A stretch of 64,000 nucleotides of DNA from Octopus vulgaris (lineage: Eukaryota), in contig OX597841.1 of NCBI GenBank assembly GCA_951406725.2, positions 8,618,001 through 8,682,000 of the forward strand, read 5' to 3'. Position 1 is the stretch's first letter, and each line of letters starts with the position of its first letter. Below, in pieces: positions 22,633 through 57,395 of this stretch. The notes under the pieces are model-generated. The model worked only from the letters and a program-made list of their open reading frames with translations, was not told where the DNA came from and made no database searches. A program made the translations under genes and the position numbers.

Positions 22633-22687
22633 TTATATATATATTCATAAATTTATAATTTTATATATATATATGTAGGTATATACC

Positions 22688-22728
<41 letters not shown>

Positions 22729-24802
22729 TCAAAAATGGAAGATAAAATTCCTGGAGGACTGGATCGATGCCCATCCAAACCACATCCCTTTCTTCGTCCT
22801 CACTGAAGCCCATCTTAGTGACCTCCACTTGGAAGCCGAGGTGAAAGTTAAAAATTTCAAAGCCATTCGTGCTGATCGTGCTGGCAGAAGAAAGGGTGGG
22901 ACTGCCATTTATGTTCATGATTCATTCTCAACAGAAGCTATGAACATATTTTCCAATGGATACTGCGAAGCAGTCGCTATATTCAGTCAAACCAACAACT
23001 TAACAGTAGTTGGGCTCTACAGACCACCCCAAACGCCCCTACCATGCTTCAAGGAATGCCTCAACAACATAAAGTGTTTCATTCAGCAGTGTCAACCTGA
23101 CAACCTTTTAATGACGGGAGACTTCAACCTTCCCGGGGTTGACTGGTCTACAAACAGTCTGCCGCCAGGTTCTTCTCTCTCAACCCCTGACAGGGAGGCA
23201 GTGGAATCGCTTCTTGACTTCATGGATGATTTCTTCCTGTCCCAACTGGTGCTCGAACCAACGAGATGTCACAAAAACGTCTTAGACTTAATTTTCAGCA
23301 ATCACACTGATACTATCCACAATATTGCAGTGGGGAAAACTCTACTCTCCGACCATGACATGGTTCTCTGTGATCTGAGATTTCACCGGCCAAAATGCAA
23401 AACAAATGTCATCCCTCCTGTTCATCCATTTGACACTATGGATTTCCACAATGCAAACTGGGAAGCGATCAATAATGATCTTGCACAAGTCGATTGGTCC
23501 TTCACGCACACATACACACCCACTAACATCAAAAAGTCCTGGCAGTCATTTGTAGACACCATTACGAACATATGTGCAAACCACACCCCATTAAGATCTG
23601 CAAACAAATCTAAGTGTCGAATCCCTAGAAATAGAAAATCTCTCATCAGGAAAATTAAAAGAATTAACAAAAAAAATCAACGAGCTGAAATACTGTCAAC
23701 AGCAACACACCAACCTGACTGCCATCTCGTCGCTAGAGATTAAAAAACATAAACTCCAAAACAACATGATGTCTATCATCAATAGTCAGAGAAGAGCTGA
23801 AGAGGCCTGGGCCATTGAGAAGATCAAACTCAATCACAAAGTGTTCTTTTCATTTGCAAAAATACACAGAGTCACTGGTTCTACTGTTGGCCTTCTGATT
23901 GATGAAAATGGTACTCTTCAAGACAATGCCAAAACCATGGGAGAGATATTGCAGAAACAATACTCCTCTGTTTTCAGCAACCCTGATATGACTGATCTGG
24001 GCTGTATCAGTGATGTTACTCCCCAATACACTTTATCGGACATAACCTTTGGCGCTCCTGATGTCTTAGCAGCAATAAAGGAAATGAAGCATAATTCAGC
24101 AGTAGGTCCCGATAGGTTCCCTGCTTGTGTCTTGAAGATGTGTCAACACCAACTTGCACCCACTCGAGCCAATCTGTGGTGGAACTCACTGGATGCTGGA
24201 TATATACCAGAAGACCTATCCCAGTTTGTATTCCCAGTTTTCAAAAAAGGAAATAAATCGCTTGCCGTGAATTACCGTCCAATCTCACTCACCTCTCATA
24301 TCATTATGGTATTTGAGAGAGTGCTGAGATCGCGTATGACTCACTTCCTTGAGAGTCATGATACGCTGAACTCCAACCAGCATGGATTCCGTAATGGAAG
24401 GGATTGCCTGACGCAGCTACTGCATCATTTTGATGACATTTTGAGAGCCTTGGGAGAGGGTTCCAACACTGATGTCATCTACCTTGATTTCAGCAAGGCC
24501 TTTGACAGGTTTGATCATAAGATCCTTTTGAGAAAGCTGTCCAATATTGGTGTCACTAGAAAGCTGCTACAGTGGATCAAGTGCTTCCTGTCTAACAGAA
24601 CCCAACATGTTGTAGTCGAAGGAGTCAAATCCAGCCCAGCCAAAGTCAGCAGTGGTGTCCCACAAGGCACTGTGTTGGGCCCACTTCTCTTCATCATCTA
24701 CATAAATGATATTACTGACACCATCAAACACAGTAACATCAGAACCTTCGCTGATGATTCCAAGCTCCAGAAGGTCATCAATGGCGTGGATGACCGAATA
24801 AG
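22729..24802 (+). mobile_element. CR1-like LINE ORF2 (APE + RT through FADD), truncated at both ends
   Basis: GLYRPP, MTGDFNLP, LDLIF, LSDH; frameshift in the A-run near 23670; NYRPISLTS, NQHGFR, YLDFSKAFD, GVPQGTVLGP, FADDSK. Confidence 0.92.
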
Positions 24803-25634
24803 CCGAATAAGCAATCCTAATTCGGATAAGGATACACTCTGGCTGATTATCCCATATGCAATGCAGATCAAAACGGACATAGTTAGAGCTTTGCATAATG
24901 TAATATTTAGGCATTTTGTTAAGGATATGAATAAATTTAGTCATTTAATTAATAATGGTACTGTTAGAGTAGGATATAGCATTACTCATAATATAGCCAC
25001 CATTATCTCCTCTTTTAATAACAGGAAACTGGATTACTTCTATAAAGATAGAAAGTTGAATTTAGATAATAGAAATTTGCCCCCCTTTAATAATAGGAAC
25101 AGTAACACTTCTGGAACCAACGGGAACAACCCTCTTAACAATTGTAATCCTTCTAATGTGAATGGTGGTACAGGATTGGGGACCAATCTTAGATTACCCC
25201 AATCTGTCAATAACTGCAATTGCAGAAGTAGAAATAAATGTGTGTTTGATAATCAATGCCTCAGGAAGGAGGTAGTTTATCAATGCACTGTGGTTACACA
25301 ATTTAGTAGTAGGGTGTACATCGGAGCAACCATGAATAGTATGAAACAGAGACTTAATTATCACAGATATACTTTTAGAAATATAAATAGGATGTACTCC
25401 ACGGGGTTAAGTGCATACATTTGGGAACTAAAAAGTAAGAACTTAGATTTTAGATTAAATTGGAAAATATTAACTTCGGCACCTGTGTATAATGGAAAAA
25501 ATAAAAAATGCTCTCTATGTATTAATGAAATTTTTTTCATTATTAAAGCGGGCAGGCATATTATTAACAACATAAATGAAAAAAACTTTTTTTGCATTCA
25601 TAGACTACCGTTCACCTTTTCTAGATTCAAATAG
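23766..25634 (+). CDS. Chimeric 622-aa ORF: CR1-type RT (N-terminal part) in frame with a Penelope-type linker and GIY-YIG endonuclease
   Basis: Continuous ORF in the track. RT motifs end near 24800; the C-terminal part has CNCx5C, VVY..VYIG, RLNYH and CSLC..E..CIHR. Confidence 0.75.
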   Translation: MMSIINSQRRAEEAWAIEKIKLNHKVFFSFAKIHRVTGSTVGLLIDENGTLQDNAKTMGEILQKQYSSVFSNPDMTDLGCISDVTPQYTLSDITFGAPDVLAAIKEMKHNSAVGPDRFPACVLKMCQHQLAPTRANLWWNSLDAGYIPEDLSQFVFPVFKKGNKSLAVNYRPISLTSHIIMVFERVLRSRMTHFLESHDTLNSNQHGFRNGRDCLTQLLHHFDDILRALGEGSNTDVIYLDFSKAFDRFDHKILLRKLSNIGVTRKLLQWIKCFLSNRTQHVVVEGVKSSPAKVSSGVPQGTVLGPLLFIIYINDITDTIKHSNIRTFADDSKLQKVINGVDDRISRISNPNSDKDTLWLIIPYAMQIKTDIVRALHNVIFRHFVKDMNKFSHLINNGTVRVGYSITHNIATIISSFNNRKLDYFYKDRKLNLDNRNLPPFNNRNSNTSGTNGNNPLNNCNPSNVNGGTGLGTNLRLPQSVNNCNCRSRNKCVFDNQCLRKEVVYQCTVVTQFSSRVYIGATMNSMKQRLNYHRYTFRNINRMYSTGLSAYIWELKSKNLDFRLNWKILTSAPVYNGKNKKCSLCINEIFFIIKAGRHIINNINEKNFFCIHRLPFTFSRFK

Positions 25635-38563: not shown

Positions 38564-41500
38564 TGATTGATTGATTGATTGATTGATTCTAGTTTCAGCT
38601 TATGAGCTGTGGCCATGCTGGGGCACCGCCATTTGGTGTTGCTACTTGGTTTTACTTCACGAAAGCTTTTTAGCAACTGCCATTTGGTGCATGAGAGAGT
38701 TCGATGCAGCTGCCCTCATCTGCACCTCCTGCCGTGAAGTTGGTTCATCTGGGACACCTGACAGGAAGAGATCCAGTTTCATTTTAAAGACATCTGCATC
38801 CACCCCATGCAGGTCTCTCAGGTTCTTCGGGAGGATATTGAAGAGCTGTGGGCCTCGGAAGCCCAGGCTATCACAGAATCTTGTCCTACATCTTGATGGC
38901 GAGTTTGGAGTCCTAGGCACCACGCAGTGGCGCCCAGTTCTGGCATTTGCGTAACTCTCGATGCCAAAGTTTAGGACACGTCCCTCCAGGATCTTCCAGA
39001 TGTATATTATGGCATATCTTTCCCGCCTACGCTCCAGGGAATACAGTTTTAATCTCTTCAGTCTTTCCCAGTAGCTTACATTCTGCATAGAGGCTATCTT
39101 CTTCGTGTAGCTACGTTGGATCGCCTCGAGCTCTGTGATCAACTTGACACTGGATGGTGACCATAACTGAGAGCAGTAGTCAAAGTGGCTTAGGACAAGT
39201 GTCCTCCAGAGGACCATCATGGTTTCTTGTTCTCTTGTTCTAAAGGTTCTGAGGATCCATCCGGCCAGTCTTCTACATTTCATTGCCAATTTAGCAACAT
39301 GTACACGAAAGGTCGCGTCATCACTCATGTAAATACCTAGGTCACGCACTGATTGTGCCTCTGGGATTGCTATTCCTCCGGGTCCGGTGTATTCATTGGG
39401 TATTGCATTTAGTTTTGCATGCTGATAGTATAGAGCTTGAAACTTTTCAGCATTGAACTGCATGCTATTCTTTTCAGCCCACTTGTATATTTTGTCCAGC
39501 TCACATTGCAGGTGCTTAGTGTCCTCAGGGTTCTGTATTGCCTGTGAAACTTTTGTATCATCTGCATAACTTGTGATCGTGGCTCTCTGCGTGGCTGAGG
39601 GCATGTCTGAGAGGGCCATTATGAACAGTAGTGGTCCCAGAACAGTGCCCTGCGGGACACCGCTCACTATTTGCGTGTTAATGGAAGTGGCCCCATTGGC
39701 TACTACCACCTGACTTCTATCTTTCAGAAAGTCATGGAGCCATTCTCCCAGTTTTCCAACTATGTTGAGATCACGCAGTTTGTGACATATCATTCCATGA
39801 TCGACTTTATCAAAGGCCTTTGCAAAGTCGAGATATATCACTTCCACATTTGAGTGGTTGAGCAGCCGTTTCAGCACCCAGTCATAGTGTTGTAGGAGCT
39901 GAGTCAAACAGCTTCTCCCTGGTCGGAAACCATGTTGGGTGTCGGGCAGCAAGTCATTCTCTTCAAGGAAGGTGATCATCTTCCTTCTGACTATTCGTTC
40001 CATGACCTTGCTGATGTGTGAGGTCAGAGAGATAGGTCTGTAGTTCTTGGCTTCCGCTCTGCTACCTCCTTTATGAATGGGGCATATTTTACCTTCCTTC
40101 AGTTTTCTTGGAAGTTTGCCAGCTGCAAGGAAGCTCTGAAAGAGGAACTGCAGTGGTCTTGCTAGGACTCTCTTACATGTTTTTAGGAGGATTGCCGGGA
40201 ATCCATCGGGGCCAGTAGCTGAGTCTGTTTTCATTTCATCTATAGCCTTGATTACATCGTCTTCCTTTATATCGATGTAATCTATCGTCGCCGCCTCTGA
40301 TTTTATATCTGCAGTGGTAAAAAAAGTCAGTTGGATTGGTGATTTGGAGATGCCCAAGGGGTGGAGTGAAAACACTCTTGAATTGCTCATTCAGTATTTC
40401 ACTTACCCTCATTGGTTTTCCTGTAAGTGTGCCATCCTTTTCGAGGAGTGGCCCTATTCTACAGTGCACCGTAGCTGTTTCTTTGGCATACATGTAGAAA
40501 GCTCTGGGGTTAGATTTTATGTTGTCTATAGCCCAGGCTTCTTTGTCTGCTCTTTCCTTTTCATGAGAGAGTTGCAGACATTTTTCGATTTCCAACAGTT
40601 TTATTTTTAGGCGGGACTTTTCACTGCTTTCAATCTGTTTGCTTAGGCGATTTGAAAATTTTGTACGCCGTCTCATTAAAATTTTCCTCTCTCTGGGGAT
40701 TTTGTTCTTGTGTACAGTGGCCTTTCTCTCTGGGACACATTTGTAGCATATGGCTTGCATTACAGACATGAATTGTTGAAGTTTCACGTCGATGTCTGGC
40801 GAGGAGAGACATTTAGGCCAGTTTTGTTTGAGGATCTCTTTCTCAATTTGTTTCCAGTTTGCCTTATGGTAGTTCAAGCTGGAAAGATTCTGAGGGTTTC
40901 TTGTAGGCTGCATGTCCGTGCTCTCTTTTGGCCCGTACTCTTTTGGTCAGCTCTATCATGTTGTGATCCGAGAGTAGTGTCGGTGTCACTTTCACATTAT
41001 GGATGAGATCCATGTCATTTGTGAAGCAGAGATCCAGTGTGTTACCTGCCCTGGTTGGTTGGAGTATTACCTGCTCCATGTACAGGGTGTTGATGAGGTT
41101 CAGGAGGGACCTCGCCTGTCCTCGTTCACATCTTGTCATTCCTGGGAGAGAAAGGCCCTCGGGCCATCTGACACTGGGCAGATTGAAGTCTCCCATAAGA
41201 AGTACACTTATGTGTTGTTCTAATGTGGTTAGAACTTCTTCTATTTTTATAAGGCAGTCTTCAAACTTGCCCACATGGCTTGGGGCATCTGGAGGGCGAT
41301 ATGTAGCACACACAACTACATCAAGTTGCCTAATATGTACAATTAGTGTGTCACACACCGAGTTTGAGTATGACAAGAGGACCTGGGGTGTGAGGTCCTC
41401 ACGGATGTACATAGCAACACCTCCATGACTCCTTTCTTTTCTGTCGGTCCGTAGTACAGCATACTGTGGTATGTGTAACTCCGCATCTGCTATGTCCGGT

Positions 41501-42337
41501 TTCAGGTGCGTTTCCGTAAGTGCTATGCATAAGGCTTGATTGCATGCAACAAAGTCTCTCAGGAACGGGATTTTTGTCCTGTTACTGAGGGTTTGCAGCC
41601 CTCTGATGTTCAGTAGGAGCATCGAGGTGAGGTGTACGTTGTTGCCGGCGGTGTCCATCCTGGGTCTGTTTGCTGTGGTGGTCTTGTATATAGTGGGTAG
41701 TCCCACCTGCGGGCTTGGGTTTGATGAAGCCAGGTCAGCTGCTGTACAATCTTTTGTGCCATGCACAAAAAAGATTGTTGCTCAGCAGCTGCCCTTTCGA
41801 CAACATCATGTTGGCGGTTTGTGGCATGCACAACATCTGCGTACCTCCGCTTTGGGGCAGGTGGTGCGTGGTCCATCCTTTTTCCTTGTGTTGATGGTTT
41901 GTCCATCTGCTTCGTGTCTCTGTGGCAGGGTCCCCGATGTGCAAAGCGGCAGCCTGCACCTTGCTTTCCATGCAAGCAGGAACCTCTCAGGTAGAACCTA
42001 CACACCCGTGTGCGCTGTTTGTTTCCATCTTTTGCGGTTCCACTTCTATTCCTGGTTGTTTCACCCTTTGGTCCTGCTTGAGCTTTTCCTTTAGCTCTTC
42101 CAGTCCTTCTTTTAGTTCTTCCTCCTCCCTCTACCTCTTCACCGGGTTCTCCGTCTCCATGGCCCTTGCTGCCGTTGGAGAACTTGCACCTGGGATCACT
42201 TCCCGGGCAGGTTTCTCACTCAAAACCTCCTCCCGGGAATCCACCAGGTGGGGGTGACTTCTTTCATCGTCTCCATTCTTGCCATCTTTGCCCCGCTCGT
42301 TCTCAAAGATGGCATCAAGTGCGCCAATGTGCGACCG
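38564..42337 (-). mobile_element. CR1-like LINE copy B (duplicate of copy A with the same ends)
   Basis: Same 5' truncation point and flanks as copy A; ORFs 40864-41766 (APE) and 38657-40390 (RT). Confidence 0.93.
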
Positions 42338-43871
42338 GTAACGGTTAAAAACATGGATGACACAGGCGCCCTATGACTTTAACACAAAAAGAGAGACACA
42401 AAAACAATATCAGCAAGCGTGGAAAAATAATTACCTTTTCGGTGTTAAGACACATGTTGAACAAGTGGCCGATGGAAAGAGAATGGCTGAGGCAGCAAGT
42501 CGCAAGAGGGTAAGAGAGAGGAGGTGCTAAGAGAGAGAGGGGACCAAGGAGGGTAGAAGGCGAGGACAGAAGCAGTGACCGAGAGAGAGAGAGGGAGAGA
42601 AGGAATCAGAGAAGAAGCAGTGATCAAGAGAGAGCGGGAGAGAAGGAATCAGAGAGGCTGGGAGAAAAAGGCGCCAAAACAATTTGGCAACGAAGCAATG
42701 GCGAAGGAAAGAAAATAGTTTAAAGACATCGTGCAGGGGTTTTGATATGATAAACATAAAGAAGTTATTATGCACGTACGCTGCGAAATATATAATAAAC
42801 CTTTACATAAATAACTAACGTGAAATACACGAAGGGACGAACAAAAAGACAAACGGGTCATTCAAAGCCTTCATCCTCAGTCAGAAACTGATCCCTCATC
42901 GCAGATTTCGGCTGTTTAATTCTGAGATCCGCTCCGAATCAGCCAGCCACAGAAGGAAAGAATGCAACGCAACAGAGACGAACATGAAACACACACACAC
43001 ATATATATACATACACACACACACATATATATACATACACACATACATATATATATATATGTATATAATAAACCTTTACATAAATAAATAATAATATATA
43101 TATATATATATATACATACACACACACATATATATACATACACACATACATATATATATATATGTATATAATAACTTTTAGATAAATAAATAATAACACA
43201 TATATATATATATATACACATACACACACACATATATATACATGCACACACAAACATATATACATACACACACACACACATATATACATACACACATACA
43301 TATATATATATATGTATATAATAACTTTTAGATAAATAAATAATAACACATATATATATATATATACACATACACACACACATATATATACATACACACA
43401 TACATATATATATATATGTATATAATAAACCTTTAGATAAATAAATAATAACATATATATATATATATACACACACACACATATATATATATATGTATAT
43501 AATAAGCCTTTAGATAAATAAATAATAACATATATATATATATATACATACACACACGCATATATACACATACACACACACATATATATACATGCACACA
43601 CACACATATATATACATACACACACACATATATACATACACACACACAAACACACATATATATACTTACACACACACACACACATATATATATACATACA
43701 CACACACAAACACACATATATACATACACACACATATATATACATACACACACACATACATATATACATACACACACACATATATACATACACACACACA
43801 CATATATATATATACATACACACACACATATATATATACATACACACATATATATATATACACATATATAT

Positions 43872-43902
<31 letters not shown>

Positions 43903-44173
43903 CATACATACACATATATATATATATATATATATAATATATATATATATATATAATAAACATTTACATAAATAAATAACGTGAAATACACGAAGGGACG
44001 AACAAAAAGACAAACGGGTCATTCAAAGCCTTCATTCTTCAGTCAGAAACTGATCCCTCATCGCAGATTTCGGCCGTTCAATTCTGAGATCCGCTCCGAA
44101 TCAGCCAGCCACAGAAGGAAAGAATGCAACGCAACAGAGACGAACATGAAACGAAAAATCTCTTTTGGAGACA

Positions 44174-44485
44174 TGATTGATTGATTGATTGATTGATTCT
44201 AGTTTCAGCTTATGAGCTGTGGCCATGCTGGGGCACCGCCATTTGGTGTTGCTACTTGGTTTTACTTAACGAAAGCTTTTTTGCAACTGCCATTTGGTGC
44301 ATGAGAGAGTTCGATGCAGCTGCCCTCATCTGCACCTCCTGCCGTGACGTTGGTTCATCTGGGACACCTGACAGGAAGAGATCCAGTTTCATTTTAAAGA
44401 CATGTGCATCCACCCCATGCAGGTCTCTAAGGTTCTTCGGGAGGATATTGAAGAGCTGTGGGCCTCGGAAGCCGAGGCTATCACA
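44174..44485 (-). mobile_element. CR1-like LINE copy C, 3' end only, cut off by LTR-element sequence
   Basis: Matches 38564-38875, then switches at CAC to protease-region sequence. Confidence 0.9.
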
Positions 44486-46608
44486 CTGCTTCCTCCACTC
44501 CACGCGGAGTGGAGGAAGCAGTGTTAGGGCAGTCGACGGAAGGGAAGTGCACGTGGAGTGGAGTAAGCAGTGTTAGGGCAGTCGACGGAAGAGAAGTGCA
44601 CTGCGAAGTGGTTACCGATGCGCAGATTGTGGTGCAGGGACTACAGCTGATGTTGCGAGAAATTGTGGTTGGTCACTTGGTGGACGAGATTGACGTGGTG
44701 ATGGGGATGGATGCAATCACCCGCTTTGGAGCTGTCACCGTCAACGAGGCTGGCGTCACGTTTGGGTTAGCGGGGAAACCGTGTAGGGCGAGACCACGCA
44801 CCGACGACAAGCGTGAGGTAAAGGATGCGGCGCACACCATTGAAGACCAGGATTTTCGGGCTGTCTTTGATGGCAAGAGGTGGACAGTGGAGTGGCACTG
44901 GAAGGGAGAGCCCCCGATGTTAAAGAATAAAGTGGGCTGCTATCAGCATACTCTAAAAGGAGATGCCAGAAGTGAGTTCGAGGGGGAAGTGGAGCGGTGG
45001 ATTAAGGAGGGCATACTGATCCCTTGGGAAAAAGAAGAGAGCGGAGTCCTGCCACTGATGGCGGTGATACAGCCCACAAAGCATAAGGTCAGGCCAGTGC
45101 TTGACTTCCGAGAGCTGAATCACCACGTGTTGTGTCATACAGGCGGCGAGGCCACGTATGTCTGCGGAGACACCTTGCGAGAGTGGAGGCAGACGACGGG
45201 GGCCTCCACGATTGTCGATTTGAAGTCGGCATACCTACAGGTGCATGTGGCTGAGAAATTATGGAAGTACAAGCTCGTCCACCAAGTGACCAACCACAAT
45301 TTCTCGCAACATCAGCTGTAGTCCCTGCACCACAATCTGCGCATCGGTAACCCCTTCGCAGTGCACTTCTCTTCCGTCAACTGCCCTAACACTGCTTCCT
45401 CCACTCCACGTCTCTGCCACTTCTGTGGTCATCAGAGTCGTCGTACAGCCCGCGTCCACCAGGGCTCGCGACATCTTCCCCTTCACCAGAATGTCGACCA
45501 CAGGTAACGATGATAAACGCGCCGCTACTAATCCAAAGGGATAACTACCGGTGCAGTAGTCTCCCGCGGTCCGTTTCCCCGCAGACACTCGCTGGCTACA
45601 TGCCCTGGCTCTCGACACCGGTAGCAAACCACCTCTCGCTTGGGCGACGCGCAGTCGCGGACCATGTGTGGGCCTTGGCACCGGAAACACTGTCCTTTGA
45701 ACGATCGCACGCGTTCTTTCCTCAGCCCCTCTCCGTTGCTCCTAGCTGGGCCACTTTTCGACGTTACAGTCGCTGCTACCGACGTCAACCTGCTGCACGA
45801 AACCAGTACACGTGCCCGCGATATGATATCGGCCATCGGCATCGAACGCACGTTCGGGAGCTTCTGTAGCTCGACCGACATGATGTCGGGAAAGCCGGTC
45901 ACGAACGCTAACCTAACCGTCCGTTCTAGCGACTCTCCCTCATATCCCGCCAGTTTAGCCAACCTTCTAATCTCACCGGCGAACACGTCCACCTGTTGTC
46001 CGGTCCATCTCATTCTACCCAGCCGAGCGTACGCTTCAAATATTCCTTCCGCGAAGGGCTCCATAAGTCAGATCTCCACTTTATCTTCGCTGAGTTGGTC
46101 CGTCTCCTCCATCTCTAAATATAACGCCAAGGCCGGGCCATCCAAATACAACGGCATAAAACTAGCCAGGTCAGCTATACTGTGGAGCTTCGCCACCAAC
46201 TTTACCCTCTTCAACCAAGCGACCACATCGGTGTCGCCGCAAAACGGTGTTATAGGCTCGCGTGAAACCATAGCACTCTGCATAATTTTCTACTTTTTAT
46301 TTTTTACGAAACCGAATGATTATTTGCCGAAATAGCTTGTAGTATGAAAAGAGTACAACAGAACAAGGAAAGGAATGGAAATGTAATTGGGTCTTACCTG
46401 GCCGGAGATGAACTCGGATCGCCTTTAGCCAACTCGCTCGCGTCGTGTCTTCTCGGTGTCTTCGTCGTGTCTGGCGCAACTGGTCAATGCCGCACGTGCG
46501 TTCTGTCTGTCACTTCCGCTTCCGCTCGCGCATGCGCCCTGCAAGACCTGCAAGCCCCATTTCCGCTCCCCCCCCCATTCCGTCACACTCCTTCACCATC
46601 ACACCACA
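44483..46608 (-). mobile_element. Rearranged LTR retrotransposon (family 2): 5' LTR, gag and protease on minus strand; inverted protease-RT block 44506-45279 on plus strand
   Basis: LTR 46338-46608 (TG..CA); gag with two zinc knuckles (45528-46283, one frameshift); ALVDAGC; plus-strand VRPVLDFRELN and VDLKSAYLQ. Confidence 0.88.
46326..46337 (-). promoter_or_regulatory. Primer-binding site complementary to tRNA-Phe nt 1-12
   Basis: Plus strand reads GCCGAAATAGCT, abutting the LTR end (TGTAGT at 46338). Confidence 0.75.
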
Positions 46609-49329: not shown

Positions 49330-52300
49330 TGTAGTGTGAACGGTGAAAAGAGTACAACAGAAAAAGGGAGAATGGAAATGTAATTGGGTCTTACCTCGTC
49401 GGAGATGAACTTGGATCGCTTTTAGCCAACTCGCTCGTCTGGTCCCTTCGTCCTGTCTTCCGCAACTCCTCAATGCTGCACGTGCGTTCTGCCTGTCACT
49501 TCCGCTTCCTCCGGCGCATGCGCCCTGCAAACCCTGCAAGCCCCACTTCCGCTCTCCCCCATCCGCCACACTCCTTCACCACACACCACACGCCCCCCTG
49601 ATCTACAGATCACTGAACCGGCTTCCTCACTCACTCCCGCACCTGAAACTGGTTTCATAATCAGCCAACCAGGGAGGAGGGTGCCGCTCCCTCTGTGGTC
49701 GCAGTGCGACCCTAGGACTTGTACCTGGCGTGTTGCTGCCGACCTCGTCATCCTGTCTGTTGTTTTCGTCTTGCCCACTGCTGCTGGCCCCATCCTCTGG
49801 GGCATGGACAATCCTCCGTATGTCCAAAACGTGGCGTGGTATACCATCAACCGAGATGTTATTCTTTGAATTTACGGAGGTTATTGTCCCCTTTCCCCAT
49901 TGCGATGTACACCGTGCGTTTGGGGGTTTTATCCAGACTTCCTCCCCGACCTGCACGAAGGCGTGCTCTTCCTCTGCCCCGGGTCGCTTTGATGTAGTAC
50001 ACGGATGCCTCCACTCGTACCTGAATATTGCCCTGTGTGGCACCGACTCCTCAGCCTGTCCTGATCTGGGCGGCATATTGTACCAAAACACGGCCTCGAC
50101 TGGTGAAATGTGACCCCTCTCTGCCATGGCCTTGATGGTACGATGATGCCTTTCCACCACCCCGTTTCCACTTGGCCGGTATGCCGCCCTGAAGAAGCGG
50201 TTGACCTTCCACACATCAAGCATTTCTCTCAGCACATCCGAGCGAAATGCAGTGCCGTTGTCCAGAAGCAGTTCATCCACGGGGCCTCGTTCCAGGAATA
50301 TCTCATTCAACACTTTCACAATTTCTTCTGCGGTCCCCGACTTCATCTCCCTTCACCCGCCCCGGTCTGCAGTCAATCATTGAGAGGTATGTCCCCTGCC
50401 GGTAGTGTGTTATGTCCACCGCCAGTCGTCTCCAGTCCTGGTCCACTGGAATACTTCCCGCTTCATGCACGACCGGAGCAGGGTCGATGGACTGGCACCT
50501 GTCACAACTGCTAACCACTCTCTGCACGCTCTGTCTTGTCACGTCGGAGTCAACTTTTCTGGCTAGGAACAATGTCCTGTCCACACCCATGTGATGCATG
50601 GTGTGTAGTCTCCGTAACTCCGAGTCGCTCAGACGGCATACTGCAGCTACATCCTGCTTCGCATTCCTCTGGCACCTTCAACCAGGCTCGCTTTACCCTG
50701 GTCAGGACGTCTGCCCTGTTCTTCTCAGAAGGCACAAAGATCACGCTCAGCTTCAGATTGAACTCAGTGGTTAGTTCACGCAGTATTCCTAATCGACGCT
50801 TTACCAGGATCTCTGCAGCCCCTTTGGTCCGCACCCTCCTCTCATCGGTGATGACTGCTGTCGCCCAACCAAGTACAGTGGCCGAATCAGTCCTGATTTC
50901 TATGGTGTGCAACCCCCACTTCAAGGCTAGGTTCACCCCCTTCAGCACGGCATCCAACTCCGCCACGTTGATGTGATTGCAGTCATCCATCTTCCTGAGC
51001 CAGGCCGCATCTTCCACCGTGACACCTCCCACTTCCAAGACGACCTATTGCGATGCTACTGGCGTCACACCATACGATCCCGCTCTTTGATTTGGGAACA
51101 TACCAGCTGCCCCTCACCGGGTCCTCTGCTCCTACTCTGACCAAGACTTCCTGCATCATGTCGATTGTCCTCTCCCCCACTTTATCATTCCACTTCACTC
51201 CTTCGGCTCGTCTCTTGATGAAGCTACATGCTGTCTGGAGCCAGCCTGCAATCGGGTAGTGTCCCACCAGCTTCCCACACACAGAGAACAGTTCCCGTCT
51301 ACTCATGCTGGCGCCCAGTTCAGGGACCTCATTCCCTCGCCGGAACACCAAGGCGCCGGCCTTGTCTCTCCATAGCTTGAGGCCCAGTGCAACACCTCCC
51401 TCCATTGCCACAATTGCTCGCAACGTCAGCTGTAGTCCCTGCACCACAATCTGCGCATCCGTAACCCCTTCGCAGTGCACTTCTCTTCCGTCGACTGCCC
51501 TAACACTGCTTCCTCCACTCCACGTGGAGTGGAGGAAGCAGTGTTAGGGCAGTCGACGGAAGAGAAGTGCACTGCGAAGGGGTTGGAGTGGAGGAAGCAG
51601 TGTTAGGGCAGTCGACGGAAGAGAAGTGCACTGCGAAGGGGTTACGGATGCGCAGATTGTGGTGCAGGGACTACAGCTGACGTTGCGAGCAATTGTGGTT
51701 GGTCACTTGGTGGACGAGATTGACGTGGTGATGGGGATGGATGCAATCACCCGCTTTGGAGCTGTCACCGTCAACGAGGCTGGCGTAACGTTTGGGTTAG
51801 CGGGGAAACCGTGTAGGGCGAGACCACGCACCGACGACAACCGTGAGGAAAAGGATGCGGCGCACACCATTGAAGACCAGGATTTTCGGGTTGTCTTTGA
51901 TGGCAAGAGGTGGACAGTGGAGTGGCACTGGAAGGGAGAGCCCCCGATGTTAAAGAATAAAGTGGGCTGCTAGCAGCATACTCTAAAAGGAGATGCCAGA
52001 AGTGAGTTCGAGGGGGAAGTGGAGCGGTGGATTAAGGAGGGCATACTGATCCCTTGGGAAAAAGAAGAGAGCGGAGTCCTGCCACTGATGGCGGTGATAC
52101 AGCCCACAAAGCATAAGGTCAGGCCAGTGCTTGACTTCCGAGAGCTGAATGACCACGTGTCGTGTCATACAGGCGGCGAGGCCACAGATGTCTGCGGAGA
52201 CACCTTGCGAGAGTGGAGGCAGACGACGGGGGCCTCCACGATTGTCGATTTAAAGTCGGCATACCTACAGGTGCATGTGGTTGAGAAATTATGGAAGTAC

Positions 52301-53333
52301 CAGCTCGTCAGGTATAGGGGCCGGACGTACTGTCTGACCAGGTTGGGATTCGGGCTGAATTCAGCGACGAAGATTATGGCAACAATTCTCAAGGCCATCC
52401 TGGGGAAGGTGGACAGAGTAAAAGGGCCACCAATTCATACATCGACGACATTCTGGTGGATGCCACTTCCGTAGTCATCAGGGTCGTTGTACAGCCCGTG
52501 TCCACCAGGGCTCGCGACATCTTCCCCTTCACCAGAATGTCGACCACAGGTAGCGATGATAAACGCGCCGCTACTAATCCAAAGGGACGACTACCGGCGC
52601 AGTAGTCTCCCGCGGGCCGTTTCCCTGCAGACACTCGCTGGCTACATGCCCTGGCTCTCGACACCGGTAGCAAATCACCTCAGGCTTGGGCGACGCGCAG
52701 TCACGGACCATGTGTGGACCTTGGCACCGGAAACACTGTCCTATGAACAGTCGCACACGTTCTTTCCTCAGCCCCTCTCCGCTGCTCCTAGCTGGGCCAC
52801 TTTTCGACGTTACAGTCGCTGCTACCGACGTCAACCTGCTGCACGAAACCAGTACACGTGCCCGCGACATGATATCGGCCATCGGCATCGAACGCACGTT
52901 CGGGAGCTTCTGTAGCTTGACCGACATGATGTCGGGAAAGCCGGTCACGAACGCTAACCTAATCGTCCGTTCTAGCGACTCTCCTGTGGGATGACGTCAG
53001 CAGCAGGACGTCAGCCAGCGGGGTGCGTTGACCGGAAGCTGGGGCAAGCGGAAGGGGTCAGCCGTCAAGCGCGCGGAAGGGGCGGAAGTTGACCTTTCCA
53101 ACGTGGGTTGACAAGACGTGCGAGGTGACAAGACGTGCGAGGTGACAAGACGTGCGAGGTGACAAGACGTGACAAGACGTGCGAGGAAGTCGCTAAAGGG
53201 TTTGGGGCTAGCAGCTGCTATCGTTAGTGTTCGGGTAGGGGCTGTGAGGAAGGACCAGCCATCTCGGGAGGATCTCCGTCACCACGAAGAGAAGGTAGGT
53301 GCCTCTATATTCAAATCGCACACACTCACTACA

Positions 53334-53345
53334 AGCTATTTCGGC
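53334..53345 (+). promoter_or_regulatory. Primer-binding site complementary to tRNA-Phe nt 1-12
   Basis: AGCTATTTCGGC immediately after the 5' LTR; it is the reverse complement of GCCGAAAUAGCU. Confidence 0.78.
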
Positions 53346-53377
53346 AGTTCGTAAACATTCACATTTTTTTCAACACG

Positions 53378-54142
53378 ATGTCTGCAAAAATTAGGATCGC
53401 CAGTGACGTCGTCAGACCTTTTAACGGCGAAGGCGATGTAGTGGCCTGGATTCAGAAAATCAGGCTGGTGGCGAGACTGCAGGGCATAAGCGACGTGGCG
53501 AGTCTTATGGCGCTGTATTTGGAAGGGAGTGCGTTGTCACTTTACCTAGAGATGGATGTCGAAGAACGGCTCTGCGATGAGAATATAGAGCGGCGCTTGT
53601 GTGACGCATACACGGAATGCGAGTACACAGCTTTCGCTAAGCTAGGTGCAATCAGGTGGACGGGAGGCCAAGTGGACGACTTTGCATCAGAAGCTAGAAG
53701 GCTAGCGACTCTGGCCGGGTTTGCCGGAGAAGAACTGGAGAGAGCAGCCCGACTGGCGTTCGTGAATGGGTTCCCCGACGATGTAGGGATTCACCTACAA
53801 CGACTGCCCGGGGTCAAAAAGATGCCATTGAGCGAACTTGTAACTCATGCTCGCGCGTTGACGAGACACTCTGGGCGGAAGGCGATAGCGATGGCGGTGA
53901 CGGAGGCGCGTAAAGACGGACGACGTCCCGAGAAAGAGGTACAGAAGCCCACCGTGCAACGAGAGCGGCCGTTCTCAGGACGGTGTTTTAGATGCCAGGG
54001 ACCGCACATGGCGCGGGACTGTACGCAGCCGGGGCCCGTTTGCTATCGATGCAGGCAGACAGGGCACATTGCCCGTGATTGCGGCCGGGGAAACGACCGC
54101 GGGGAAGTTGCTGCCTCTCGAACTTTCCCCTCAAACGAGTAG
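53378..54142 (+). CDS. gag: Gag (254 aa) with two zinc knuckles
   Basis: CFRCQGPHMARDC and CYRCRQTGHIARDC; ATG 45 nt after the LTR. Confidence 0.93.
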   Translation: MSAKIRIASDVVRPFNGEGDVVAWIQKIRLVARLQGISDVASLMALYLEGSALSLYLEMDVEERLCDENIERRLCDAYTECEYTAFAKLGAIRWTGGQVDDFASEARRLATLAGFAGEELERAARLAFVNGFPDDVGIHLQRLPGVKKMPLSELVTHARALTRHSGRKAIAMAVTEARKDGRRPEKEVQKPTVQRERPFSGRCFRCQGPHMARDCTQPGPVCYRCRQTGHIARDCGRGNDRGEVAASRTFPSNE

Positions 54143-56958
54143 AGGCGCTATTGGAGACGCTGCCATTGATTGACGTGGAGGCCGAGGGGGAGACGTTCAA
54201 GGCCCTTGTGGATACGGGCTGTACGACCACCCTGGTGACTTCGAGGGTGACGAAGGAATGGAACGGGGTGTGTAGTGTCCGGGCGGTCGACGGCAGCGAA
54301 ATCCGTTGCAGAGGCAGCAGCAAGGTAGAGATAGTGGTGCGCGGCGCGACGCTAAGGCTACAGGCAATTGTGGCCGAACGCGTGATAAATGGAGTTGATG
54401 TGGTGATGGGGATGGACGCCATCAACTGCCTCGGTGGCGTCAGTGTTGTGGGAAATGAGGTCACGTTCGGAAGCGTGGGGGCGTCGTGCACTGCGAGTCA
54501 GGATCGCCAGAGGGAGCAGAGCCCCACGAGGGACTGCGCCGCTTACACCATCGAGGACAAAGACTTCCAGACGGCGTTCGATGGTCAGCGGTGGACGATA
54601 GAGTGGAAATGGAAGGACGAGCCCCCGACACTGGAGAACAGGGTGAGCTGTTACCAGCATACCCTGAAAGGCCACGCCAGGGTTGGGTTTGAAGACGAGG
54701 TGGAGAGGTGGATCGAGGAAGGGGTCCTTGTCCCTTGGAAGGAGGAGGTAGCGGGCGGAGTGCTACCCCTGATGGCGGTGGTGCAGCCTACGAAGGGAAA
54801 AGTCAGACCGGTGCTGGACTTCAGGGAGCTAAACCAGCACATATCGTGTCACACGGGAGGTGAGGCGACAGACGTTTGTGGTGAGGCATTACGTAAGTGG
54901 AGACAGTCGATTGAGGCAGCGACGATTGTCGACTTGAGATCGGCATACTTGCAGCTCCATGTGAGCGACAAACTATGGCGATATCAGCTGGTGCGGTACA
55001 AGGGCCGGACGTACTGTCTAACCAGGCTGGGTTTCGGGCTGAATTCCGCTCCGAAGATCATGGCGGCAGTGCTTAGGTCCGTCCTAGGGAAAGACGGCAA
55101 GATTAGGAAGGCCACCAGCTCCTACATTGACGACATTTTGGTGGACGAAACTGTAGTGCCAGCCGACGAGGTAGTGAGACATCTGGAGAAGTTCGGACTG
55201 GTTGCTAAGCCACCGGAGTCGATTGAAGGGGGAGCCGCGCTGGGGCTGAAGCTGCGAAGAGATAGATCAGGTGAATTGGTGTTCCGGAGAGGAAATGAAA
55301 TCCCAGAGCTGAGTTCCAGCGTCAGCAGGAGAGAGCTGTTCTCGGTGTGTGGGAAGTTGGTCGGTCACTACCCGATCGCTGGATGGCTGCGCACGGCGTG
55401 TAGTTACACCAAGAGACGAGCAGAAGGAGAGAGGTGGGGCGACAAGGTGGGAGAAGGGACGGTGGCGATGATGCAGGAGATCCTAGAGAGGACAAGAGCG
55501 GAAGACCCGGTCAGGGGGAACTGGTACGTGCCCAAGACGAAATGCGGGACCGTCTGGTGTGATGCTAGCAGTATAGCGATAGGGGTGGTGTTGGCAATCG
55601 AAGGCACTGCGGTGGAGGACGCCGCCTGGCTTCGGAAAGCAGACGATTTCAACCACATCAATGTCGCCGAATTAGACGCGCTGCTGAAAGGGGTGAACTT
55701 GGCCTTGAAATGGGGGCTGCGCACGATTGAAATGCGGACGGATTCGGCCACTGTGCTTGGCTGGGTAGGATCGGTGATCACCGGTGACAGGAGAGTGCGG
55801 ACGAAAGGTGCTGCGGAGATGTTAGTGAAGCGCCGTCTAGGAGTTCTAGGTGAATTGATCGCCGAATTCGGACTGAAGCTGAACGTGGTCTTCGTGCCTT
55901 CGGAGAAAAACAAGGCGGACGTACTGACCAGGATGAAAAGGGCGTGGTTGGAAGAACCGGAGGAGGCCCGGAAAGGGATAGCTGCGGCGTGTCGGTTGGA
56001 TGACTCTGAACTGAAGAAACTGCACGCTATGCATCACCTGGGTGTGGACAGGACCCTGTATCTGGCGAAGAAAATTGATGCTGACGTCACTAGGAGAAGC
56101 GTCCGGAAGGTGGTCGGGAGCTGCGACAGGTGTCAGTCCATCGACCCTGCTCCGTGTGGGCATGAACAGGGAAGCCTTTCCGTGGAGCAGAACTGGAAAA
56201 GACTAGCTGTGGATGTGACACACTACCGTCAGCGAATGTACCTCTCCATGGTCGACTGTGGGCCGGGCCGGCTGGCCATTTGGAGGGAGTTGAGATCGGG
56301 CATTGCTGACGAGATCGTGCAGATCCTGAACGGGATATTTTTAGAGAGAGGTCCCGTGGAAGAACTACTGATGGACAACGGGGCGGCGTTTCGTTCGGAA
56401 TCATTGAGGGTTATGCTTGATCGGTGGAACGTGCGACGCTTGTTCAGAGCAGCGTATAGGCCGGGCGGTAACGGGATCGTGGAGAGGTACCATCGGACAG
56501 TCAAGGCCATAGCGGAAAGAGGGCACATTTCGCCGCTTGAAGCAGTTTTTTGGTACAACTTGTCTCCCCGATCCGGACAGGCTGAGGAATCTGTGCCGCA
56601 GAGAGCTGTGTTCAAATATGAATGGAGGCACCCGAGCAAAGCGCCAGAGGGTCACGAGGAAGAGAAGGGACCCGTTCGCGTGAAAATAGGGGAGGAAGTC
56701 TGGGTCAAGCCACCAAAGGCGCGCTGTACGTCTCAATGGAGCAGAGGAACGGTGACGGCGATCAATTCCAGAAGCAACGTATCCGTAGATGGCACACCAC
56801 GACATGTCTTGGACCTTCGCAGGATTGTTGCTTCGACGGACGATGATTCGGGAGAGGGGGAGAGTGAGGAGCCCAGCTTGAGAAGATCTCGACGAGCAAG
56901 TCGTTCTCCCGGTTGGATGGTAGACTACAACATGGAGCGGAGAGATTGTGATCTTTAA
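54079..56958 (+). CDS. pol: Pol (protease-RT-RNase H-integrase), -1 frame relative to gag
   Basis: ALVDTGC; PVLDFRELN, VDLRSAY, LGFGLNSAP, YIDD; WCDAS/HINVAEL/RTDS/NKAD; HHCC, VDV..MDNG..VERYH. Confidence 0.95.
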   Translation: MRPGKRPRGSCCLSNFPLKRVEALLETLPLIDVEAEGETFKALVDTGCTTTLVTSRVTKEWNGVCSVRAVDGSEIRCRGSSKVEIVVRGATLRLQAIVAERVINGVDVVMGMDAINCLGGVSVVGNEVTFGSVGASCTASQDRQREQSPTRDCAAYTIEDKDFQTAFDGQRWTIEWKWKDEPPTLENRVSCYQHTLKGHARVGFEDEVERWIEEGVLVPWKEEVAGGVLPLMAVVQPTKGKVRPVLDFRELNQHISCHTGGEATDVCGEALRKWRQSIEAATIVDLRSAYLQLHVSDKLWRYQLVRYKGRTYCLTRLGFGLNSAPKIMAAVLRSVLGKDGKIRKATSSYIDDILVDETVVPADEVVRHLEKFGLVAKPPESIEGGAALGLKLRRDRSGELVFRRGNEIPELSSSVSRRELFSVCGKLVGHYPIAGWLRTACSYTKRRAEGERWGDKVGEGTVAMMQEILERTRAEDPVRGNWYVPKTKCGTVWCDASSIAIGVVLAIEGTAVEDAAWLRKADDFNHINVAELDALLKGVNLALKWGLRTIEMRTDSATVLGWVGSVITGDRRVRTKGAAEMLVKRRLGVLGELIAEFGLKLNVVFVPSEKNKADVLTRMKRAWLEEPEEARKGIAAACRLDDSELKKLHAMHHLGVDRTLYLAKKIDADVTRRSVRKVVGSCDRCQSIDPAPCGHEQGSLSVEQNWKRLAVDVTHYRQRMYLSMVDCGPGRLAIWRELRSGIADEIVQILNGIFLERGPVEELLMDNGAAFRSESLRVMLDRWNVRRLFRAAYRPGGNGIVERYHRTVKAIAERGHISPLEAVFWYNLSPRSGQAEESVPQRAVFKYEWRHPSKAPEGHEEEKGPVRVKIGEEVWVKPPKARCTSQWSRGTVTAINSRSNVSVDGTPRHVLDLRRIVASTDDDSGEGESEEPSLRRSRRASRSPGWMVDYNMERRDCDL
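54088..54146 (+). promoter_or_regulatory. -1 ribosomal frameshift signal: G GGA AAC plus H-type pseudoknot
   Basis: Heptamer 54088-54094 in the correct gag phase; 6-nt spacer; stem 1 GGGGAAGTT/AAC(T)TTCCCC; loop GCCTCT pairs with AGAGGC 54141-54146. Confidence 0.85.
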
Positions 56959-57395
56959 GATCAGGGTGGCGTGTGGGATGACGTCAGCAGCAGGACGTCA
57001 GCCAGCGGGGTGCGGCAAGCGGAAGGGGTTAGCCGTCAAGCGCGCGCAGGGGGCGGAAGTTGACCTTTCCAACGTGGGTTGTGCTGGTGACAAGACGTGC
57101 GATGAAGTCGCTAAAGGGTTTGGGGCTAGCAGCTGCTATCGTTAGTGTTCGGGTAGGGGCTGTGAGGAAGGACCAGCCATCTCGGGAGGATCTCCGTCAC
57201 CACGAAGAGAAGGTAGGTGCCTCTATATTCAAATCGCACACACTCACTACACTCCCTCATAACCCGCCAATTTAGCCAGTCTTCTAAGCTCATTGGCAAA
57301 CACGTCCACCTGTTGCCCAGTCCATCTCATTCTCCCCAAGCCCCACTTCCGCTCTCCCCCATCCGTCACACTCCTTCACCACACACCACAGTGTG

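Follow-up and report, generated by a model that had tools for sequence, protein, structure and literature searches.

An LTR retrotransposon lineage found in Octopus vulgaris likely primes its minus-strand DNA from a short 5' fragment of the host tRNA-Phe, to judge from a 12-nt site that lies flush with its 5' LTR. The finding itself is real, lineage-wide and specific, and the pairing of this site with the 5' end of tRNA-Phe is strongly supported by comparisons among copies of the element, the tRNAs of the host and relatives of the element in other species.

The site and the elements that carry it

Within the window, by which we mean the whole stretch of 64,000 nt that was analysed, the 12-mer AGCTATTTCGGC occurs at 53334-53345 on the plus strand and at 46326-46337 on the minus strand, each time directly flush with a 5' LTR. 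When up to one mismatch is allowed, the window holds three matches as against 0.09 expected, the third of them (27896-27907, one mismatch) having no gag adjoining it. The plus-strand element spans 52985-57251 and encodes gag followed by protease, RT and RNase H, with integrase last (PR-RT-RH-IN); its features, together with those of the second family on the opposite strand, are as follows.

52981-52984, plus strand: left target-site duplication (TSD) CTCC, 4 bp here, the family norm being 5 bp
52985-53333, plus strand: 5' LTR, TG..CA, with a tandem expansion (self-BLAST)
53334-53345, plus strand: predicted primer-binding site directly abutting the LTR, complementary at every position to tRNA-Phe(GAA) nt 1-12
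53378-54142, plus strand: gag, with two zinc knuckles, CX2CX3HX4C and CX2CX4HX4C
54079-56958, plus strand: pol, 959 aa without stops, with protease, RT (YIDD), DUF7047, RNase H and DDE integrase; it overlaps gag and presumably involves a frameshift
56950-56971, plus strand: GATC..GATC motif and a G-rich run that resembles a polypurine tract and directly abuts the 3' LTR
56972-57251, plus strand: 3' LTR, TG..CA (self-BLAST)
57252-57255, plus strand: right TSD, CTCC
46338-46608, minus strand: 5' LTR of a truncated second-family copy that reaches to about 44551, located by mapping a family-2 copy (L186) on the window
46326-46337, minus strand: identical predicted primer-binding site, flush with the family-2 LTR
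49330-57390, minus strand: deleted family-2 copy, with the plus-strand element nested in its gag and its own primer site within the deleted part

The LTR pair defined by self-BLAST terminates in CA at 53333 and 57251, which leaves the motif flush with the 5' LTR; 272 of 280 columns are identical between the two LTRs, the remaining difference being the tandem expansion in the 5' copy. A sequence-only reading of this DNA had placed a 13-mer directly after the 5' LTR. Its position at the 53333/53334 border stands, whereas the unit itself has to be shortened to 12 conserved nt, since base 13 after the LTR varies (A 18, G 5, C 5 and T 2 among 30 genomic matches). The same reading had noted the motif beside the dissimilar LTR of a second, divergent family. 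The dissimilarity holds, BLASTN between the two window LTR families giving no match; yet the two families are not very independent, since their Pol proteins are about 69-72% identical and chimeric copies (L017, L024, L025, L189 and L193) combine a family-2 LTR with a family-1 gag. The strong evidence is that from other species.

The window contains several further features that belong to its own history. The insertion at 52981-57255 was seen with identical flanks at four fetched genomic places (L168-L171), three of them on the contig of the window, implying that this insertion was multiplied by segmental duplication. Family-2 copies contain an inverted duplication (51408-51698 and 45270-45411), and LINE copies with endonuclease and RT occupy 22679-25634 and 31556-44485, including a unit of about 5.7 kb in tandem repeat. 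Small repeat families, one of them at 27896-27907 of the window and others at L461, L462 and L470, have GCCGAAAYAGCTG 3' of ATGA words, an arrangement that we take to resemble hammerhead ribozyme cores.

Copies of the site in the host genome

Genome-wide, CA followed by the 12-mer occurs at 287 sites, as against 14 for a reversed-pattern control, and downstream of the first 30 of these 287 there is a gag in 27 and a gag or pol in 28. To avoid circularity, copies were also chosen by protein rather than by the motif. Among 30 close copies picked by their gag, the site is exact in 25 and has one mismatch in five; among 20 older copies taken from lower ranks of the gag search, 19 stay within three mismatches of 14 letters and one does not. 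An LTR pair was found in 47 of 125 protein-picked loci, yielding 30 distinct insertions with TSD-fixed ends, 24 of which have an exact 5-bp TSD. With LTR ends set by the TSD alone, the site stands at +1 exactly in 22 of the 30 and with one or two mismatches in three more; the automatic ends were mis-set in five insertions, which are counted as misses (a one-base error in L167 and L178, a four-base error in L149, a circular assembly overlap in L078 and a truncated alignment in L188). Control LTR loci of the same genome gave an LTR pair in 18 of 20, all gypsy, and all 18 have TGG 0-2 nt from the LTR; the primer motif is absent from every one of them.

What, then, would this site pair with? The claim of the sequence-only reading that tRNA-Phe(GAA) begins with the exact complement of the first 12 nt is borne out by the host genome, where the tRNA-Phe 5' pattern is found at 77 places; in all 8 of the 8 loci that were checked, the tRNA-Phe(GAA) called by ARAGORN begins precisely where the match begins. 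All 12 positions of the site are complementary to nt 1-12 of the host tRNA, with U12 adjoining the terminal A of the LTR, and nt 13-14 cannot pair. When the whole tRNA is set against the whole element, nt 1-12 are the sole complement of at least 10 nt, and the duplex that they would form with the site has a predicted energy of -18.7 kcal/mol. Some 40 of the genomic tRNA-Phe 5' matches lie in a tandem array with a spacing of 200 bp (G000:C18:30148722-30157146).

Relatives in other species and variants of the site

Relatives of Pol number 661 at E 1e-20 among 8000 scored. Those with a name belong to crustaceans, to a sea spider, a leafhopper and a cephalopod, and to Hydra; the genera and species include Hydra vulgaris, Macrosteles, Petrolisthes, Oratosquilla, Argonauta and Nymphon. 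A metagenome scan with the Pol alignment returned 75 loci; the start of gag is included in 36 of them, and the site can be read in 35. Upstream of gag, CAAGCTAT is the top de novo 8-mer, present in 33 of these 36 loci, and the implied RNA GCCG-NN-AUAGCU fits 30 of the 35 readable sites, with changes only at tRNA positions 5-6 (NN is AA in 12, CG in 11, UG in 4 and GG in 3). Five relatives deviate (L104, L116, L117, L119 and L130); the site of L130 implies GCCCGGAUAGCU, which we take to be the start of tRNA-Lys(UUU). Positions +9 to +12, which are free of the anchor, read CGGC in 31 of the 35 sites. Across 34 distinct regions, +1 to +6 and +9 to +12 are conserved at 94-100% and +7 and +8 vary, in a comparison whose anchor included part of the motif. 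Conservation then drops from 0.94 at +12 to 0.59 or less from +13 on, i.e. where a tRNA ends. The sequence-only reading had named non-conservation in relatives as its own refutation, and the motif persists in relatives whose Pol identity is as low as about 38-54%.

Do the variants at positions 5-6 correspond to actual tRNAs? When prokaryotic bins and viral contigs were scanned for starts that resemble those of tRNAs, 86 matches were obtained, among which tRNA-Phe(GAA) accounts for 10 of 14 AA starts, 9 of 9 CG starts and 46 of 47 UG starts. Starts belonging to other isotypes (CA, CC, GC and GT) never occur in any element site, and no GG-type tRNA-Phe start was found in these bins and contigs with the pattern used. 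Three of the four site variants are thus real tRNA-Phe starts elsewhere; the tRNAs that match the CG and UG variants do not come from the hosts of the elements, those with UG being mostly from Thermoplasmata archaea and seven of the nine with CG lying on one contig. The viral contigs hold no Pol relative, and 120 motif loci in them have no gag or pol match.

Pairs of elements from the same source and with less than 70% Pol identity share the same variant in 19 of 22 cases; among the other pairs, 124 of 501 do so (0 of 20000 permutations). Each source is a mixed community, the datasets having been grouped by the prefix of their names, so that the source is only a proxy for the host. All three discordant same-source pairs stem from one metagenome, in which UG and CG sites occur together. 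A Pol tree of 43 rows, from which L136 and L139 were excluded for low coverage, requires 10 or more changes of the variant; a single clade is rejected for AA, for CG and for UG, and is not rejected for the GG elements (p 0.43). The variant therefore follows the source dataset rather than the element tree, as predicted for a site that adapts to a host RNA, with the source standing in for the host.

Two observations in these metagenome loci concern other parts of the element. Just ahead of the G-rich tract that adjoins the 3' LTR, a GATC motif, mostly doubled as a hairpin-like GATC..GATC, is present in 23 of 55 loci as compared with 3.1 expected from shuffles; the loci with it include L070, L077, L079, L083, L091, L096 and L105, besides 56950-56971 of the window. 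GATC is also present in the anticodon arm of tRNA-Phe, and a putative second contact with the tRNA is possible. One locus carries, at the end of its primer site, an insert that resembles a tRNA, has a poly-T tail and lies between the copies of a GCGGCC duplication (L105:1848-1945); it looks like a SINE insertion, and ARAGORN calls no gene in it.

A proposed mechanism for priming and its alternatives

In the mechanism that we propose, the element RNA would invade the acceptor and D stems of tRNA-Phe and pair with its nt 1-12, whereupon a cut would be made in the tRNA at the 12/13 bond or immediately before it, the most plausible cutter being the RNase H of the element acting on an RNA duplex, as in Tf1. 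RT would extend the new 3'-OH straight into U5, and plus-strand synthesis would later run off the 5' end of the primer, remaking exactly 12 nt and holding the site matched to the host tRNA. For the DNA to end flush with the LTR, a 3'-OH is needed near nt 12 of the tRNA, so that the tRNA is probably cut; the abrupt limit at 12 nt would be accounted for if a primer with its end at nt 1 is copied by run-off. The primer could also end at nt 10-11, provided that integrase trims a dinucleotide; the sequence by itself is compatible with either end point. The catalytic residues of RT and RNase H, including the acidic residues of RNase H, are conserved in 16 diverse members, which permits the predicted primer-cutting activity. 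As for precedents, Tf1 uses an 11-nt primer that is released by an RNase H cut (PMC7175516, in excerpt), Ty5 and copia are primed from an internally cut tRNA (PMC5371799, PMC10886601, both in excerpt), and the cut in the Ty5 case has been reported to be made by a host nuclease (PMC5371799). Here, we consider the RNase H of the element and a host nuclease to be about equally probable cutters. Four contig-only runs over 53190-54300, uninformative on this point, show no joint at the border of the LTR and the site, and a search with narrow patterns found no LTR-LTR junction fossils.

Could the tRNA take part without being cut? An intact tRNA-Phe might pair with the site and prime from an internal 2'-OH, a kind of priming that exists in retrons, or it might serve only in packaging or RT loading, with something else, such as a protein hydroxyl, acting as the primer. 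All of the sequence evidence bears on pairing of the tRNA 5' end and not on cleavage, which suits this view; the pairing nevertheless ends exactly at the LTR boundary, as the 3' end of a primer would, and copies with tRNA nt 13-16 between the LTR and the site were not found in one narrow search, weak either way. On balance we consider an uncut tRNA rather improbable. It is also conceivable that the motif has nothing to do with priming and is a signal recognised by proteins, for instance an integrase end, a Gag packaging signal, a splice acceptor or a translation signal, a view that finds some support in the location of the site 0-22 nt upstream of the first ATG in most relatives. Such a signal would follow the element tree, yet the variant follows the source; the 12/12 match to the start of a host tRNA also speaks against it, and no second primer site is found at the canonical position beside the 12-mer. 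We therefore regard a protein signal as very unlikely.

The two remaining alternatives keep an RNA primer but change its origin. If a different RNA ending in GCCGAAAUAGCU-3' were the primer, the tRNA match would be incidental, and the 12-mer does turn up elsewhere, in small repeat families (of 6, 3 and 3 loci). No family in excess is seen, however, for the 12-mer with a T-run after it (26 matches as against 14 in the control), and the 56 loci examined in other genomic contexts (from 26 and 63 matches) include no large family ending at the 12-mer. No multicopy sequence with that end stood out among them, which also meets the worry, voiced in the sequence-only reading, that the 3' end of another RNA might match better. 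Moreover, the variants alter acceptor-stem positions 5-6 of the tRNA and match tRNA-Phe starts, and another source for the primer appears highly improbable. Self-priming as in Tf1, from the 5' end of the element itself or from a splice junction within the LTR, draws on the GT-type donor-like words in both window LTRs and on the AG with which the site begins. Over 35 regions, either LTRs or upstream sequence, the best complement covers on average 7.5 of 12 positions against 7.6 in shuffled sequence (maximum 9), and for a spliced primer the best GT..AG junction averages 7.3 against 7.5 (maximum 10); the earlier statement that the LTRs lack a complement of the site thus holds for contiguous and spliced forms alike. 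As self-priming moreover does not predict a fixed site across unrelated LTRs, we consider it exceedingly improbable. Priming from a cut 5' fragment of tRNA-Phe is the reading carried forward below.

Novelty and implications

According to excerpts of reviews, LTR reverse transcription starts from a tRNA 3' end, from a tRNA cut in the anticodon loop or by self-priming. In the full-text literature covered, which lies outside Repbase, subscription journals and most supplements and includes excerpts of PMC10886601, PMC7472051, PMC12859917, PMC3587641 and PMC8220671, we found no description of an LTR element that takes its primer from the 5' end of a tRNA, and the primer motif turned up solely in papers that are unrelated, by their titles and the starts of their abstracts. 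A prior description in Repbase, subscription journals or supplements is unlikely, though a real chance of one has to be reckoned with.

If the proposed reading is correct, a lineage-wide 12-nt site for the tRNA-Phe 5' end would add another priming route and assign a definite role to a very short 5' piece of a tRNA. The family would, furthermore, offer a clean substrate for studying how an internal 3'-OH arises on a tRNA, and a link between tRNA priming and the self-priming of Tf1. On the practical side, the absence of TGG sites and of gypsy and BEL domains means that annotation tools seeking them would miss or misfile an abundant family, for which a 14-letter diagnostic is now supplied. A bolder proposition, which we put forward tentatively and with somewhat less than even confidence, is that an undescribed lineage of LTR retroelements of superfamily rank, marked by DUF7047 and spread over arthropods, molluscs and cnidarians, follows a fourth priming route, in which its RT/RNase H would unwind the host tRNA-Phe from the 5' end, cut after nucleotide 12 and extend the fragment, thereby bridging tRNA priming and Tf1 self-priming and evading silencing by 3' tRNA fragments.

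Comparison with known systems

Direct TG..CA terminal repeats, a TSD, gag, the PR-RT-RH-IN order and a polypurine tract make the family an LTR retrotransposon. By the features compared it belongs to none of the groups tested, and it would operate as tRNA-primed LTR elements do, with a geometry like that of Tf1 but in trans; apparently it is unclassified. The PR-RT-RH-IN order is common to it and Ty3/Gypsy (Metaviridae), whereas a gypsy-type RNase H (Pfam RT_RNaseH PF17917/PF17919) gives a hit at E 0.01 in 0 of 34 Pol proteins. Compared with four gypsy RTs from the host genome, its RT shows 23-31% identity and stands apart on a long branch, a result that carries a long-branch warning and comes from a reference set too thin for placement. 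Of the BEL/Pao (Belpaoviridae) signature domains, Peptidase_A17 and DUF5641 occur in 0 of 34 Pol proteins, and the element measures only 4.2-4.3 kb. Ty1/Copia (Pseudoviridae) is rejected because the integrase of the family is C-terminal and not upstream of RT. The HINxxEL motif of its RNase H is one that we take to be DIRS-like; a DIRS-like identity is rejected by the DDE integrase (rve) in 34 of 34 Pol proteins, where a tyrosine recombinase would be expected. The RT word RPVLD of the family is found in a DIRS RT as well (Kuafu supplement). A PDB search gave only weak matches, to retroviral integrase, RT and protease, and the ESM Atlas only generic RT clusters. A sister group (P0448, P0451, P0455, P0459 and P0464) has protease, RT, DUF7047 and RNase H in common with the family (35% identity) and a different integrase, which suggests integrase exchange.

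The Troyka elements and Kuafuorterviruses resemble the family as a deep, mostly aquatic-animal lineage outside Gypsy, BEL and Copia with the order PR-RT-RH-IN (PMC12440569, PMC11673190, both in excerpt). Identity with Troyka/Kuafuorterviridae is rejected on several counts: the family has TG..CA ends and a 5-bp TSD (24/30) as against CG..CG and 3 bp (PMC12440569), and YxDD in 16 of 16 aligned RTs and CX2CX3-4HX4C knuckles as against IADD, VADD or LADD and CX2CX8-10HX4C (PMC12440569, PMC11673190). The excerpted text of PMC12440569 on Troyka mentions no primer, primer-binding site or tRNA, and the supplement of PMC11673190 contains no match to the family words RLGFGL and HINVAE or to the primer motif.

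With respect to priming, canonical elements have their primer site at the same position as the family, and IAP shares the tRNA-Phe isotype with it (PMC7472051, in excerpt). Canonical priming by a tRNA 3' end, including that of IAP and of BEL elements primed by tRNA-Phe, differs in that a TGG site pairs with the CCA end. In copia, Ty5 and the fungal Helenus elements, an internally cut tRNA provides the 3'-OH (PMC5371799, PMC10886601, both in excerpt); these are Copia-type elements whose site is complementary to the anticodon stem-loop of a tRNA (iMet, Tyr, Ile or Asp), whereas the family, with its PR-RT-RH-IN order, would pair with nt 1-12 of tRNA-Phe. From the self-priming Tf1 and Tf2 (Tf1/sushi, Ty3/gypsy), the family differs in that its Pol lacks gypsy RNase H signatures and in that the complement of its site lies in a host tRNA and not in the element.
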